Virus record (IMG/VR): IMGVR_UViG_2909288124_000002
Direction: 5' to 3' (one strand)
DNA length: 35,851 bases
DNA from: a virus
Taxonomy: Duplodnaviria; Heunggongvirae; Uroviricota; Caudoviricetes
The translations under genes were made by a program, and so were the position numbers. The notes below the pieces were generated by a model, which worked only from the letters and a program-made list of their open reading frames with translations, was not told the DNA's origin and ran no database searches. Positions 3,817-35,032 of this stretch are shown here, piece after piece; the stretch's first letter is position 1; each line of letters begins with the position of its first letter.

Positions 3817-6800
3817 TATGCAAGCCTCACAATATAGTTAAATGCGATGTTTTTGACGGTGTTTTCCGCGTTACCAGCAGCGTTAACGGTGATGGTGTGT
3901 CCATGTGAACCAATCGCAACGGAGTGCGTATGAGCACCAATACCGACAGTATGCGCGTGTGCACCTGCAGATGCTGCTGTGCCGGACAGTGAGTGGCTAT
4001 GATTACCATCTGTACTGGTATTAGCTAACCACCCCGTAGACATACCTACTGAGCCTTGTACACCCCAGGTATTTTGACCTGAGCTTGTATAACCATATTG
4101 ATAAGTATCTTTAAAAACACTGGGGTTAAATCGACGGCCATCTCTATGGCTGTGATTACCAGCTGCATTCGTGCTGCCACTTAAACTATGGGTATGCGCA
4201 CCAGTGTTATTCGTGGATTTAGTGCCGTAATCAAACGACGATGTGGTTTTCGTCCCCAAATCCGTACTGGATGCGCTGGCGCTGTGGGTATGCGATTTAA
4301 TGCCGTCCTGTTCCTGAGACAATACGGCCCGACCACTGGCAGGTTTGCCCTTAATCGTCCAGCCACGCATATCAGGGATCACGCCTGACGGATAAGCCGC
4401 TGCAAGTTTCGGGTATGCAGATTTGTCAAAAGTCTGCCCCTGCATCAGGGCATAGCCAGACGGAACGGTATCTGATGGCCACGGGATTGGTGCACCGACT
4501 GGATAAAACTCTGCAGGAGGATGAGCCGAGGTGTAAAGCTGCGCCCACGGCGACCAGTTTGCGTCGGTCGTATCCCGTCGTGAACGAATAAATGCCGGAG
4601 CATGAGCACCGCTTGTACCACTCCAGCCGATGAGTAACTCACCTTCGCCAACGGCTGTCATCCCTTTCAGGTGAATGATATTTCCATACGCTGTTGGATA
4701 TCCGTTGTTATACACCTCGTATAACTCAAGACCTGCTGCCCCCTGCGTATTGTCTGTCAGCGCGGTTACCCGACCTTTTGAAGCCAGATTAACTGATGAT
4801 ACTGCTGTTCCACCTGACGGTAACGCCCCGATCTCTGATGCCGTTGGCTTATTTCTGGAGTTATAGTCCCTTCGCCAGCCAGGTGAATAATCTGTTCCGT
4901 GATTAATATAGGTAAACTGGGCGTTAGTTGTTCCACCACCAGTGGAGGTGGTCGGTGTGGTAATGCGGATCGTCATCGCTGACTTTATCCCCATTACTTC
5001 AATGACAGCTCCGGCGAGATGAATATTACCGCAGTCAGTATCAGTAATGATTTTATTATTGCCATAAGACCAGGAACCCTTGCACATCCAGTATGGATGG
5101 TTAAATGCTCCCTGAGAATCCAGCCACTCGATAAACTGTGCAGTCGTCCAGTTTCCTGTTGTTGTGCTTACTGACCCACCGAAGGCACGGCAGGCACCAA
5201 TATTTTTCGTAAAGGTATCTTTGCCAGGGATATCCGCACCGTTCTGATCTTTCTGCAGACGTTTCTCAGCATTGTCATTGGCTGCTTTTACTGCCTTTGG
5301 TGTCGCGGCAAGCGTTTCAGACGTGCTGTTGGTCGCGCTGCTTAGCTGGATTATCCCTTTCTGTGCTGTCGTTGCATCCTGTGCGGTGTATTTCCCGTTA
5401 GCCAGGTCATACGCGGCCTTAACGGCTTTTGGTGTTGCCGCCAGTGACTCGGAAGTGCTGTTAGTCGCACTACTGAGCTGTACTATCCCCTTTTTCGTCG
5501 TGCTCGCATCCTCAAGCGCCACGGCGGATGCAATATCCTCTGCCCGTTTTGCTGCTGTCTCGGCGCGCGTTGCTGCGGATTCTGCCGTACTTTTGCTCTG
5601 TGCTGCCGCTGCCGCACTGCCAGCAGCCTCTGTCGCCTTCGTGGATGCCGTCGTGGCGCTGCCCCTCGCTGCTGACGCCTGTCTGGTCGCCTCATCTTTT
5701 GAAGCAGACGCCGATGATGCCGATGACGCCGCCGAACTGGCGGACGATGCGGCAGCCGTTTTTGAGGATTCTGCGCTGGTTTCCGACGCTTTCGCGTTCG
5801 TTTCGGATGTCTTCGCTGCGGAAGCAGACCTCGCTGCTGCGCTGGCCTGTTCAGTGGCTTCGCCAGCCTTCGTTGTGGCTGTTGAAGCGGATGATGCGGC
5901 GCTTTCTGCCGATTTTCCGGCGGCGGTGGCACTGACTGCTGCCTCCTCTGCCTTAATGGACGCCTCACGGGCCGATGATGCAGCTGTTGTCTCAGAGTCT
6001 GCCGCAGCTGAGGCGCTCTGTTCCGCTGCCGTTTCAGAAGACTTAGCATTCGTCTCGGACGTTTTTGCCGCCTTCACGGAATTTCCTGCCGCCGTTGCCG
6101 AGGAGGCTGCACTGCTGGCGCTTGTGGAGGCGTTCGTTTCTGATGATTTTGCCGCCTCTTTGGAGGCCGCCGCATCCCGGGCTGAAGTGGCGGCTTCTGA
6201 CGCTTTCGTCGTCGCAGTGGATGCAGAAGTGGCTGCTGATTTTTGTGACGCTGCAGCATTCGTTTCTGACGTTTTCGCGGCACCGGCACTGGTGGCCGCC
6301 GCGCTTTTTGAGGACTCTGCAGCGGCAGCACTTTTTGATGCTTCAGTGGCCTTTGTTGATGCCGTTCCTGCGCTGGAAGACGCCTCCTGAGCCGACGTCG
6401 CGGCCTGTCCGGCTGACGTGCTGGCTGCACGCGCTGAGCCTGCAGCATCAGTCGCATGGGTTGCCGCCTCACTGGCAGATGTGCCGGCATCACTGGCTGA
6501 CTTCTTCGCGGCTGCCGTGTTCTGTGCCACCGCGGACGCGTTACGCGCCACCTCTTCCACCATCAGTTCAAAACGGCGCAGAGCCTCCGGACGGGCATCA
6601 TCCTCCGTCATGGCACCGAGAAAATCATTCAGCGTACCGGGTCGGGAATCTTCATACACGGTGATGGTCCCGGCATGTGACGGCGGGAATCCTTCCACCA
6701 ACAGAATAACGCTGTACTGACCGTACTCAACGTCCATGCTGTAACGCCCGGCTTCATCCGGATTTTCTGAGGCCAGCGTGTTCACCACCACCGTGGTGCT

Positions 6801-32467: not shown

Positions 32468-33220
32468 TTATCTCGTCACCTTCCTCAATTGCGCTTCCGC
32501 GTATGCTTCTTCCTGCCAGCACTTTGTTACCAGTTTACCAATGACGTCCGCATACCCCTTATACCACTGATAATCGGTCAGGTCTGGTACCAGCTTCTGG
32601 ACATGACGTCGTGCCAGCGTGGTCGGTAAACGACTAAACCGGTTTCCATTACAACGCCCACAAATCTTATATACCGGTACGCCATGAAACCGGGTTCTTT
32701 TTTCATCCAGAACAATCCCTTTACCCTTACACCCTCTGCACGCTGTGCTGGCTTCGCCCTTACCATGGCAATGCTGACATAGTTCCTTCACCCATTCTTC
32801 CTTGATTACAGATTCCCCGCGTCTGTAGTGTTTCACCACTTCGCGCAATACATTATAAAATCCCGTACCTGAACAATGCTCACAGCGAGCCTTACTTGCC
32901 GCAGACCTGGAGTAATCAGCAAAGGCAAAACTCACGAGGTAAGGAATAATCTGTAACCGGATTTCTTCACTCAATTTGTTCAATGTCGGGTTATCCAGTG
33001 CCATCGCGTAATTTAGCAGGCCTTCAATCGCAAACTGAGGGTCCTGAACACCAACTTTTGCCAGAAATAAGGCCAACCCAAGTGGTGCTTTCGACTGCAC
33101 CATCCCCTGCGCTGCCATTACATCCGTAATTGTTAAACAACCGGTGCCTGTCGCTGGAGCGTCATCGCTCAATTTTGGAGATTTTGGGGAGTAATATTTT
33201 GGTAAGGCTTCAAGGTTCAT
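32468..33220 (-). CDS. quuQ: Late gene antiterminator Q (phage 21/82-type, 250 aa)
   Basis: From MNLEALPKYYSPKSPKLSDDAP...; Cys-rich zinc-binding region CEHCSGTG...CQHCHGKGEASTACRGCKGKG...CGRCNGN. The ORF track begins 10 codons upstream. Confidence 0.85.
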   Translation of the reverse strand: MNLEALPKYYSPKSPKLSDDAPATGTGCLTITDVMAAQGMVQSKAPLGLALFLAKVGVQDPQFAIEGLLNYAMALDNPTLNKLSEEIRLQIIPYLVSFAFADYSRSAASKARCEHCSGTGFYNVLREVVKHYRRGESVIKEEWVKELCQHCHGKGEASTACRGCKGKGIVLDEKRTRFHGVPVYKICGRCNGNRFSRLPTTLARRHVQKLVPDLTDYQWYKGYADVIGKLVTKCWQEEAYAEAQLRKVTR

Positions 33221-33233
33221 GCTCGTTCTCCAC

Positions 33234-34283
33234 TTACACCAGTACGCCAATTGCCAGCGCGCGATCGATAAAACGAAATATCAGCTCCAGTTGGGAGCCA
33301 TACTTATCTTCAAATGCCACTGTATCCGTATGCAGCTCGTTGTGATGCTTTCTGCACAAAGGCAACACAAAGAGATCATGTGCTTTTGTTCCCATTCCGC
33401 CCTGCCCGTGACCAATCAGATGATGCGGATCGTCGGCTGGCATACCGCAGCAAGCACACGGCTGTGTCTTAACCCAACGTGTGTATTTCTCCTTAACCCA
33501 GCGGCGACGTTTAGGCAGCTTCATGAAAGATTCCGGAGACTCTGGATCAACGGTGATGCTTACCACCGTCTTTTCCTGTGGTGATTTTTGTTGCTGGTGG
33601 GCGTAAGGCAACGGTGCAAGATTTTTTGTGCGTTGTTTCAATATGCTGGTGGCGGTCTGCTCTCCCGGTACGATGTCGCTTTCGCGGTACACCGAGCAGA
33701 TTTTTTCCGCTGGTAATCCCAGCGAACGACGCGATACAGCCTCAGGTAGTGCATCCACCACCTGATTGCAGACCGCCCACCAGGATAATTCAGCCAAAGA
33801 TAATTCCCGCTCCTGCGTACCGCTTATTGCGTGACGGATGACGTCAATCACCCATGCTGTCAGATTTTGTTGAGCAAGCAGCTCCAGTGATTCCGATGTC
33901 TGGTCACGCAGTTGGTTGTCGCAGTGCCAGCACAACACCATTGCGCCGGTACCATAACGGTGAATGACTGTTTCAGTGTGATGGTAATCGCCATTAGGCC
34001 ACTGGCAGGATGTAACATGACGTAATAGCCAGTCGGACAATGCGCCAACGCCGCCAGCAGCACGAATCACCCGTTCGTTACTAAAAAACGGCAGCAATGT
34101 TTTGTCTTCCGCCAGCGGCTGGCGAACGGCAGGAACGACTCCGGATGGCAGATTACGCATGCTTTTTGGTTCCGGTTCCACCAGCACTCGAGGATTATGA
34201 AATATCTGTATGGATTCACGGCCCGGCTTAAGGACCACCAGCCCAAGCTCAGGCACCAGAACAGGTCTAAGTAATACCCGCAC
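33234..34283 (-). CDS. ydfU: YdfU-like DUF968 protein with C-terminal HNH-like zinc-finger motif
   Basis: ORF ...CACCGMPADDPHHLIGHGQGGMGTKAHDLFVLPLCRKHHNELH... Start uncertain: GTG at 34283 directly follows the upstream ORF stop (TAA-C-GTG); the ORF track extends to 34322. Confidence 0.75.
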   Translation of the reverse strand: MRVLLRPVLVPELGLVVLKPGRESIQIFHNPRVLVEPEPKSMRNLPSGVVPAVRQPLAEDKTLLPFFSNERVIRAAGGVGALSDWLLRHVTSCQWPNGDYHHTETVIHRYGTGAMVLCWHCDNQLRDQTSESLELLAQQNLTAWVIDVIRHAISGTQERELSLAELSWWAVCNQVVDALPEAVSRRSLGLPAEKICSVYRESDIVPGEQTATSILKQRTKNLAPLPYAHQQQKSPQEKTVVSITVDPESPESFMKLPKRRRWVKEKYTRWVKTQPCACCGMPADDPHHLIGHGQGGMGTKAHDLFVLPLCRKHHNELHTDTVAFEDKYGSQLELIFRFIDRALAIGVLV

Positions 34284-34284
34284 G

Positions 34285-34563
34285 TTACCTCCAGATCCGT
34301 TGCTGGAAAGTGCGGGACGCACGTGGTGGGCGTTCGGAATAAGGCAGCCTGACAGAGATTATCCAGTGCCGATAGTCGAGACTGAGAGCTTTCTTAACCT
34401 CGAACCCGCGCCTGCGGTAAGAATGAATCAGCCATTCGGCCTGTTCTGCAGTGCATGGAGGGTGCTGGAACCATTCAGACTTGAATGCGTGAGAATACCG
34501 CCCGTGCGTGCAGGCAAGAACGGGCGAATTATCAGAATTGTAATATTTTGCGTTGCGTGCCAT
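34285..34563 (-). CDS. Hypothetical protein (92 aa), apparently translationally coupled to ydfU
   Basis: ORF MARNAKYYNSDNSPVLACTHGRYSHAFKSEWFQHPPCTAEQAEWLIHSYRRRGFEV...; stop abuts the candidate ydfU start; family not recognised. Confidence 0.5.
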   Translation of the reverse strand: MARNAKYYNSDNSPVLACTHGRYSHAFKSEWFQHPPCTAEQAEWLIHSYRRRGFEVKKALSLDYRHWIISVRLPYSERPPRASRTFQQRIWR

Positions 34564-34629
34564 CGGTTTTCTCCGGTGGCACGGTGTTACTCAGCGGGAG
34601 TTCAGCCCCGCGCAAGATTGTAGATGAGT

Positions 34630-34881
34630 TTATTCTCCTGAAAAAGCAGAAAAGCCAGCTTTTATTCCGATCTCTTTCAATGCCTGTAATGAAGTGACAA
34701 ACTCACCTTCGCGCAAGATAAATCCGTCCGTGACCCGAGCATCCACAAAATTAATTAACGCAGCCCCATTCTTTCGCAAACACATAATGCGGTAATGACT
34801 AACAAGATTTCCATTTTCAACGCACACAGCATAGAGGCCATCTTCACAAAAAATTTTACGCAGTTCTTCGATGTTCATCAT
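34630..34881 (-). CDS. rem: Rem protein (83 aa), Qin prophage-type
   Basis: ORF MMNIEELRKIFCEDGLYAVCVENGNLVSHYRIMCLRKNGAALINFVDARVTDGFILREGEFVTSLQALKEIGIKAGFSAFSGE. Confidence 0.8.
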   Translation of the reverse strand: MMNIEELRKIFCEDGLYAVCVENGNLVSHYRIMCLRKNGAALINFVDARVTDGFILREGEFVTSLQALKEIGIKAGFSAFSGE

Positions 34882-35005: not shown

Positions 35006-35032
35006 AACAAAAACCCGCCGAAGCGGGTTAAG
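35006..35032 (-). terminator. Intrinsic terminator at the end of the relB-relE-hokD operon
   Basis: Minus-strand hairpin AACCCGC-TTCG-GCGGGTT followed by TTTTTGTTTTTATTTTC. Confidence 0.7.

Follow-up and report, generated by a model that had tools for sequence, protein, structure and literature searches.

ORF92 and ydfU in the nin region of a Qin-type prophage: a tight stop-start junction, suggestive of translational coupling, between a small basic protein and an exchangeable nuclease gene

The DNA analyzed here is a stretch of 35,851 nucleotides (nt), hereafter the window, recorded as IMG/VR virus IMGVR_UViG_2909288124_000002. It is the Qin prophage of Escherichia coli K-12-like strains, with cspB, cspF, ydfT (Q), ydfU, rem, hokD and relEB all present. 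On the minus strand the genes run in the order relB-relE-hokD, rem, a 92-codon open reading frame (ORF92), ydfU and ydfT, with cspF and cspB beyond, and our subject is the adjacent pair ORF92 and ydfU. The gene ydfU (33234..34283, minus strand) encodes a 349-amino-acid (aa) protein of the DUF968 family, according to Pfam, PHROG and the RefSeq coding-sequence coordinates in K-12 and other strains. ORF92 (34285..34563, minus strand) is a protein-coding gene for 92 aa in our open reading frame listing, contains ACTHGRYSHAFKSEWFQHPPC within its translation and corresponds to the hypothetical protein WP_012304870, annotated in strain CFSAN051542 by the Prokaryotic Genome Annotation Pipeline (PGAP). 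A GGAG ribosome-binding site at 34571..34574 (minus strand) lies 7 nt before its ATG, and the most frequent variant among the 5' contexts of ORF92 in our haplotype set was CCACCGGAGAAAACCGATG.

The two genes meet at a junction (34281..34292, minus strand) in which GGAGG at 34292-34288, within codons W91-R92 of ORF92, is followed by the TAA stop at 34287-34285, a single C at 34284 and the ydfU GTG at 34283-34281. The 3' end of ORF92 reads ...CGG ATC TGG AGG TAA, and its last two sense codons form the GGAGG of the ydfU GTG. A first-pass annotation of the window, made by a model from the sequence, had described a 92-aa frame ending in TAA 1 nt before the GTG of a 349-aa YdfU, and its coordinates and quoted motifs were correct apart from one codon, given below. 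Junction and start statistics were compiled for 66 distinct haplotypes. The stop-1 nt-GTG junction TGGAGGTAAcGTG was present in 63 of these, the string TGGAGGTAACGTG likewise occurred in 63 of the 66, and a stop-1 nt-GTG arrangement was found in 170 of 173 sampled YdfU-linked loci. The anatomy of a coupled gene pair, i.e. a near or overlapping stop and start, a Shine-Dalgarno sequence inside the upstream reading frame and conservation of both in relatives, was found at this locus.

The first-pass annotation had also raised the possibility that YdfU starts at an in-frame ATG at 34322. The codon at that position is actually GTG, and YdfU homologues begin at the position of GTG 34283, not at 34322. 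No in-frame start was present upstream of the +1 GTG of ydfU in 47 of the 66 haplotypes, and the MR(A/V)LL N-terminus of YdfU is kept from Escherichia to Vibrio. Homologues from SfV, Klebsiella, Pantoea, Citrobacter and Providencia have M/V-R-A-L-L at exactly the YdfU start, usually with an ATG and with a stop codon a few codons upstream. The conserved start position and the missing upstream starts therefore indicate that the 349-aa model is right and that the older 362-aa model, which begins at the non-conserved GTG 34322, is wrong.

ORF92 has been called as a hypothetical protein by RefSeq in thousands of genomes, and the curated MG1655 record is without it. The RefSeq pipeline places a hypothetical protein with exactly the ends of ORF92 in a K-12-like strain and in O157:H7, and also in an isolate from a feral pig, where the copies share only 74-84% identity. 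In NC_000913.3 (MG1655) the 346-bp interval between ydfU and rem (1644305-1644650, equivalent to window 34285-34629) is featureless, which looks like a gap in the K-12 annotation. To measure selection, we calculated the ratio of nonsynonymous to synonymous substitution rates (dN/dS) by the Nei-Gojobori method for 60 distinct ORF92-type DNA sequences from the fetched loci. Length variants of 273, 279 and 300 nt were found among these sequences, all multiples of three, and the overall dN/dS was 0.23. Core codons 27-72 gave a dN/dS of 0.12 (dS 0.71), which marks this part as protein maintained by purifying selection. Tail codons 73-92 gave 0.11 with a dS of 0.32, i.e. fewer silent changes than in the core, which fits an extra nucleotide-level constraint at the junction. 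The ratio for codons 1-26 was 0.71; these N-terminal 26 residues are translated and loosely constrained. Judged from sequence, both ORF92 and ydfU are real coding genes, and a 92-codon gene under purifying selection is absent from the rem-ydfU interval of the curated K-12 MG1655 annotation. An antisense reading frame of 137 aa (34210-34623, plus strand) was considered as well and rejected, as it is open in only 19 of the 66 haplotypes.

The conserved core of ORF92, residues 27-92 (34288..34485, minus strand), was delimited by profile search, AlphaFold and dN/dS and spans the whole of a family of ~66 aa, matching profile positions 1-66 of 66 in PHROG 1212 with an E value of 1.7e-35. By this profile match, ORF92 is the Escherichia version of the ~66-aa basic PHROG 1212 family of enterobacterial lambdoid phages. 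Residues 1-26 (34486..34563, minus strand) form an Escherichia-specific N-terminal extension in the alignments, one that holds C18, H20 and H25 and is predicted to be disordered, with a predicted local distance difference test score (pLDDT) of ~49. A word-based search returned ORF92 relatives from Escherichia and Shigella only (63-100% identity), and a profile search of 1.84 billion cluster representatives returned 76 family proteins, most of them 66 aa long, matching ORF92 positions 28-92 and having an M-K-K-x-W-F N-terminus at ORF92 position 27. Homologues down to ~35% identity across Enterobacterales retain the length, the fold-forming residues and the C-terminus, and Y49 is the sole invariant residue in the family alignments. 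AlphaFold, run with the family alignment, predicted a beta-alpha-beta-beta core (pLDDT >90 for residues 30-75), a less ordered Arg-rich tail and a disordered N-terminus. The core has an isoelectric point (pI) of 10.55 and the family a median pI of 9.7; nucleic-acid binding by ORF92 is a guess from this basic charge alone. ORF92 had no match in Pfam, NCBIfam or PADLOC, and sequence and profile searches of the PDB with ORF92 and YdfU gave nothing useful.

The PHROG 1212 proteins of Gifsy-2 (STM1021.1n), mEp237 (gp51) and phiES15 (gp17) have in common with ORF92 the C-terminal ...QQ(R/K)(I/M)W(R/G)-stop and a tight junction with the next gene, but ORF92 differs from them in its extra 26-residue N-terminal extension and in being preceded by rem, not ninB. 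NinE of DLP12 and lambda is likewise small and basic, and in DLP12 it occupies the same slot, between ybcN and ybcO. ORF92 was nevertheless rejected as a NinE homologue, since hhalign against DLP12 NinE gave a P value of 0.9 and there was no Pfam NinE match. Two phage records, ON470583.1 (L265 2423-2701) and ON470619.1, label an ORF92 homologue as 'toxin to Rem', and no note, paper or model backs this label: PADLOC returned no toxin-antitoxin or defence match for ORF92, YdfU or Rem, the sole NCBIfam match of Rem, to the SocB toxin, reached 14.9 bits where the cut-off is 210 and is noise, and a full-text literature search for 'toxin to Rem' found unrelated papers only.

An alternative explanation is that ORF92 is a leader or upstream reading frame with a regulatory role only, e.g. 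a Rho-dependent attenuator of ydfU and Q. The blank 346-bp stretch in the curated MG1655 record is in keeping with such a role, as are the almost neutral N-terminal 26 codons and the composition of the ORF92 mRNA, which is C-rich and G-poor over 34300-34400 and 34450-34600 (plus-strand GC skew of +0.19 to +0.25). A very strong Rho-dependent terminator, among the strongest reported in vivo, has also been measured 'upstream of ydfU' in K-12 (PMC9160355), a region that corresponds to ORF92, and at least one Rho-termination study treats the stretch upstream of ydfU as an untranslated leader. However, the strong purifying selection on the core peptide, the preservation of its length, fold residues and C-terminus in distant homologues across Enterobacterales, and the confident AlphaFold core all argue for a functional protein and make a purely regulatory reading frame improbable. 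Regulatory translation of ORF92 would, moreover, be compatible with the coupling of ydfU to ORF92 that we favor below, and not opposed to it.

The first-pass annotation had pointed to a cluster of Cys and His residues in ORF92. These residues (C18, H20, H25, H34 and C37) are present in the window sequence, but the cluster is not conserved in relatives: C18, H20 and H25 vary inside Escherichia, with S mostly found at position 18, and in the wider family H34 is replaced by Q or Y and C37 by L, M, V or I. The cluster is therefore not a metal site, and ORF92, which lacks the three or four conserved Cys/His ligands expected of a zinc-binding protein, was rejected as one. This result also bears on the proposal that ORF92 is a small zinc-binding protein and that the pair represents one split or frameshift-joined protein. 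Besides the five residues, the proposal can draw on database entries that join ORF92 to YdfU or YdfT, namely P0122 (438 aa), P0097 and P0096. Each of these is a single sequence with intron-like internal deletions and with M where the GTG reads V, features from which we conclude that the joined entries are gene-model artefacts, and no slippery heptamer was found at the ORF92-ydfU junction. A programmed frameshift or natural fusion was rejected on the same grounds, and we regard the whole proposal as very improbable, the least likely of those considered here. Joined YdfU-YdfT database proteins also exist (among P0123-P0126, 607 aa).

The C-terminal part of YdfU had been described in the first-pass annotation as carrying an HNH-like zinc-finger signature, and this was borne out. 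YdfU contains PCACCGMPADDPHHLIGHGQGG...LPLCRKHHNELH; it matched Pfam DUF968 (PF06147) over residues 160-346 with 256.8 bits (cut-off 27.8) and PHROG 96 'HNH endonuclease' with an E value of 3.9e-171, and Pfam HNHc_6 fell just under threshold. The C-terminal His-Me finger (HNH) domain, residues 256-349 (33237..33518, minus strand), has the pattern CxxC...DPHH...PLCxxHHxxLH, in which C276, C279, H287, H288, D303, H314 and H318 show no variation across 33 sequences with identities as low as 39%, and C310 is invariant or nearly so. The domain has the beta-beta-alpha-metal fold with a zinc knuckle, and both the catalytic His and the metal-ligand Cys and His residues are conserved; its closest solved folds are those of P1 Ref and YbcO. 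An AlphaFold model built from the 33 sequences (mean pLDDT 73) showed a modest N-terminal beta region (residues 1-55), a confident middle domain, a disordered linker (residues ~196-255) and a confident C-terminal domain. The middle domain, residues 56-195 (33699..34118, minus strand; pLDDT 85-92), contains a beta-hairpin and helix with invariant C93, Q94, H101 and C118, and a WH(C/H)DN motif on a predicted beta-beta-alpha element. It had no Pfam match except for the edge of DUF968. When it was compared with the C-terminal domain by hhalign, CQW/CACC, DYHH/DPHH and LCWHCDNQLR/LCRKHHNELH aligned in register, with weak scores (P value 0.006, probability 6%), and the middle domain may be a second, degenerate HNH-like zinc module that arose by duplication.

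The statement of the first-pass annotation that the function of both proteins is unknown understates what has been published on YdfU. YdfU and YbcO were classified together as His-Me finger group 7, and a recombination-related role was suggested by analogy with NinG and Ref (PMC5714182). Full-length YdfU relatives were detected by tblastn in phages of Escherichia, Klebsiella, Salmonella, Citrobacter, Pantoea, Providencia, Morganella and Vibrio, and in SfV, Pantoea AH07, Providencia, Citrobacter phiNP and Klebsiella phages the YdfU homologue is the gene immediately preceding Q.

Comparison with characterized nucleases showed both shared and distinguishing features. P1 Ref, a RecA-dependent HNH nuclease (PDB 3PLW), lacks the 255-residue N-terminal part of YdfU, and YdfU scored 17.8 bits against the corresponding Pfam family RecA_dep_nuc (PF16786), below its cut-off of 26.9, which places it outside that family. 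YbcO/DUF1364 of DLP12 (PDB 3G27) is a single domain of 96 aa, whereas YdfU has 349 aa and three regions, and the DLP12 YbcO gene is preceded by ninE, not by an ORF92 relative. NinG/Rap of lambda, a branch-specific endonuclease (PF05766) with a predicted C-terminal His-Me finger of group 24 (PMC5714182), has in common with YdfU the slot before (ninH and) Q, and in Gifsy-2 and in IMG/VR loci NinG is preceded by the ORF92-type small-gene family. YdfU gave no match to Pfam NinG (PF05766) at E 0.1 or better and differs from NinG/Rap in its N-terminal architecture; the two are positional and superfamily analogues belonging to separate families. The Gram-positive DUF968 proteins (phiETA Orf20, Listeria), described as Orf(NinB)-HNH fusions (PMC4118853), have the Pfam family and the C-terminal zinc-finger HNH in common with YdfU.

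P1 PdcB is a full-length homologue of YdfU, with 26% identity over 91% of YdfU (tblastn, E values of 5e-33 to 1e-28), and the P1 record itself mentions the similarity. PdcB is non-essential, its DPHH motif (HH) has diverged from that of YdfU, and its gene lies after phd-doc, outside a nin region (L095, phage P1, 2177-3448). The pdcA gene upstream of pdcB encodes 66 aa; PdcA was considered as a relative of ORF92 and rejected because there is no homology, and the equal length is a coincidence.

Of the 5,426 complete E. coli genomes, 4,528 carry ORF92 DNA (8,526 places in all) and 4,543 carry the 5' half of ydfU (9,091 places). Within E. coli the two are nearly always side by side, so that the ORF92-ydfU module is carried by ~83% of complete E. 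coli genomes, often in multiple copies. ORF92 is intact in essentially all close loci, and the prospect raised by the first-pass annotation that it might be absent or frameshifted in most of them did not materialize. Decayed copies of the module, in which ORF92 is frameshifted and ydfU is truncated at its 5' end, occur at L014 4030-4379 (ECGI0523) and L012 ~4001-4341 (ECMA0423), both in E. coli. An ORF92-ydfU copy 91% identical to that of E. coli lies on a 22.9-kb contig (L007, JAGZPX010000007.1) of a metagenome-assembled genome labelled Veillonella parvula, which is probably a binning contaminant.

To determine what follows the small gene in other phages, we scanned 264 fetched loci with hidden Markov models of the family, using subfamily seeds, since the wider-family alignment was too divergent to serve as one, and recovered 259 small-gene copies. 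The gene starting at the small-gene stop encodes YdfU in 173 of the copies, RusA in 71, NinG in 5, a YbcO-like HNH protein in 4 and a C5-methyltransferase in 1, and Pfam searches on representatives confirmed RusA, YbcO, NinG and DUF968 downstream. RusA genes begin with GTG or ATG at stop+2 (69+1 loci), as do the genes of the 4 YbcO-like and 5 NinG loci. The non-Escherichia junction of these three classes is TGG GGG TGA nn GTG/ATG, where the C-terminal W-G or W-R codons supply the Shine-Dalgarno sequence. In other family members the stop codon overlaps the following start codon (ATGA or TGATG), and the stop-to-start offsets seen across the family are +1, +2, -1 and -4. The gene order in mEp237, phiES15 and Gifsy-2 is NinB/YbcN, small gene, YbcO or NinG, (RusA), (YlcG), Q.

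Closely related small genes were found in front of different nucleases. The small-protein cores of L054 and L055 are 100% identical and are followed by RusA and a YbcO-like gene, respectively; cores 98% identical precede two different NinG types, and cores 80-83% identical precede RusA in one case and NinG in the other. DNA identity in the pairs L054/L055, L039/L093 and L092/L093 is 0.9-1.0 up to the small-gene stop and ~0.25 in the next 50 nt, and between L039 and L093 the small gene alone is homologous, within unrelated flanks. This collapse of identity at the stop codon indicates that mosaic exchange takes place at the junction. There is no covariation between the small protein and the downstream enzyme, and no partner specificity. 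The small gene marks a sharp point of exchange at which four nuclease families have been swapped, and it provides a clean module boundary in lambdoid mosaicism.

More distant YdfU relatives were surveyed in nine fetched loci, and in eight of these the small gene is missing; other genes stand upstream in SfV, P1, Vibrio VaK, Pantoea AH07, Providencia PSTRCR_117lys, Citrobacter phiNP and Klebsiella vB_VIPKPNMC05. Klebsiella phage Kp4865-4 is the only one of the nine with a small gene, which is of the 66-aa type and joined by a TGATG overlap. As the small gene is missing next to most sampled YdfU relatives outside the clade, ORF92 and ydfU do not form an obligate unit. The suggestion in the first-pass annotation of a translationally coupled two-gene unit thus holds in one part, for the stop-start junction is built for coupling and both genes are real, and fails in another, for the pair is not exclusive: the family is as tightly joined to RusA, YbcO-like and NinG genes.

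These patterns bear on a further alternative, in which the proteins of the ORF92 family are dedicated to the adjacent junction or branch nuclease as its accessory subunit, regulator or inhibitor, with coupling setting the stoichiometry. A DNA nuclease (YdfU, RusA, YbcO-like or NinG) lies directly downstream in ~250 of the 259 sampled loci, the basic charge of the family would fit DNA-related work, and the ORF92 and YdfU clades are near-equal in Escherichia (8,526 and 9,091 places). On the other hand, the partners have unrelated folds (RusA as opposed to His-Me finger), identical or 98% identical small proteins stand before different nucleases, distant YdfU loci mostly do without the small gene, some family members are followed by non-nuclease genes, and a conserved gene order explains the adjacency equally well. 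A dedicated subunit therefore appears unlikely to us, though less so than a leader confined to regulation.

Returning to the junction itself, folding of the mRNA predicted a hairpin of 7+7 bp (34277..34316, minus strand), a candidate coupling structure that pairs the ydfU GGAGG and GTG with ORF92 codons 83-87, joining CCCGCAC to GUGCGGG and UUUCCAG to CUGGAGG. Its energy was -19.3 kcal/mol (z -2.49), with 4 of 200 shuffles as good. Over 23 variants 91.6% of the cells were paired, and four positions changed from C to U with wobble pairing retained. The predicted hairpin is compatible with a coupling model and suggestive of it.

We consider it probable that this segment of a lambdoid nin region carries a gene of the ORF92 family coupled through its junction to a swappable nuclease gene, here ydfU, with a mosaic breakpoint between them. 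In this explanation, ORF92 and ydfU would be read in series from one mRNA. In enterobacterial lambdoid phages the family gene typically sits after ninB/ybcN and directly before a recombination-nuclease gene. The two sense codons that end it, UGG-AGG here and UGG-GGG in other phages, also provide the next gene with its Shine-Dalgarno sequence, and its stop codon precedes the start of that gene by 1-2 nt or overlaps it. We infer that ribosomes finishing ORF92 would be positioned to reinitiate at the weak GTG of ydfU, and they would probably also open the predicted hairpin, in which both the Shine-Dalgarno sequence and this GTG are occluded. Such coupling would keep the output of a potentially harmful nuclease low and tied to that of ORF92. 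The junction is also a mosaic breakpoint, where the downstream nuclease cassette has been exchanged among phages. YdfU combines several domains and is, by fold, a His-Me finger (HNH) nuclease whose C-terminal catalytic domain resembles those of P1 Ref and YbcO; it takes the slot of NinG/Rap, YbcO or RusA. Because of its fold, its conserved catalytic residues and its genomic slot, YdfU most likely cuts branched DNA or recombination or replication intermediates during lytic growth, by analogy with Rap, RusA and Ref. The dependence of ydfU translation on ORF92 translation, the nuclease activity and substrate of YdfU, and the biochemical role of ORF92 are all inferred.

Several results weigh against this explanation. 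Changes in the hairpin over the 23 variants were one-sided, with no compensatory pairs, and the 121-nt junction context folded no better than shuffles (z -0.41). A strong Rho terminator would not be expected inside an efficiently translated reading frame, and translation of ORF92 may accordingly be poor in the uninduced lysogen. The downstream gene is not always an adjoining nuclease gene: in L270 the small gene and NinG are separated by three small reading frames, one of them NinF-like; in L269 the next gene, an unknown one of 175 aa, starts 48 nt downstream; and in L013 of Erwinia tracheiphila the C5-methylase follows. Finally, the loci were picked by similarity to a few seeds and are redundant, and the locus counts given above are no unbiased census.

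A broader proposal would extend the explanation of a coupled, swappable nuclease in two ways. The ~66-residue family could be a general accessory factor of lambdoid recombination, e.g. a small basic binder of branched DNA or of a host recombination protein that works with RusA, NinG, YbcO or YdfU, and its translation could gate the nuclease and, through Rho polarity, Q. Separately, YdfU and PdcB could be tandem His-Me finger enzymes with a degenerate HNH module. Taken jointly, these claims seem doubtful to us, about as much so as a dedicated subunit.

The region is otherwise an ordinary segment of a lambdoid nin region, a very common module with a known type of nuclease, and ydfU and ORF92 are already in public annotation, YdfU also in the literature. 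The modestly new results are the gap in the MG1655 annotation, the lack of conservation of the supposed metal cluster, a coupling junction that recurs throughout the family and acts as a swap point for four nuclease families, the relationship to PdcB and the possible second HNH-like module. Any function found for YdfU or ORF92 would have broad relevance to prophage biology, the relatives of Stx phages included.

Among the neighboring genes, ydfT (32468..33220, minus strand), directly downstream of ydfU, encodes a Q-type antiterminator according to PF03589 (Pfam Antiterm, E 3.6e-54) and the RefSeq annotation. The gap from the ydfU stop to the ydfT start is 13 nt, which agrees with the placement of the pair by the first-pass annotation in the NinG/NinH slot directly before Q. 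Directly upstream of ORF92 lies rem (34630..34881, minus strand; RefSeq annotation, PHROG 340). Promoter-like matches were no more numerous than expected from shuffles; one of them, a sigma-70-like match TTTTCA-16-TACAAT at 34617-34644 (minus strand), falls at the end of rem, just 5' of ORF92, and is a consensus match only. Another consensus match, to an intrinsic terminator, is a strong hairpin between hokD and rem at 35012-35029 (minus strand). In the Erwinia tracheiphila locus, the C5-cytosine methyltransferase gene coupled to the small gene (L013 4205-4989) appears frameshifted, with its N-terminal 91 codons in one frame and the remainder in another.

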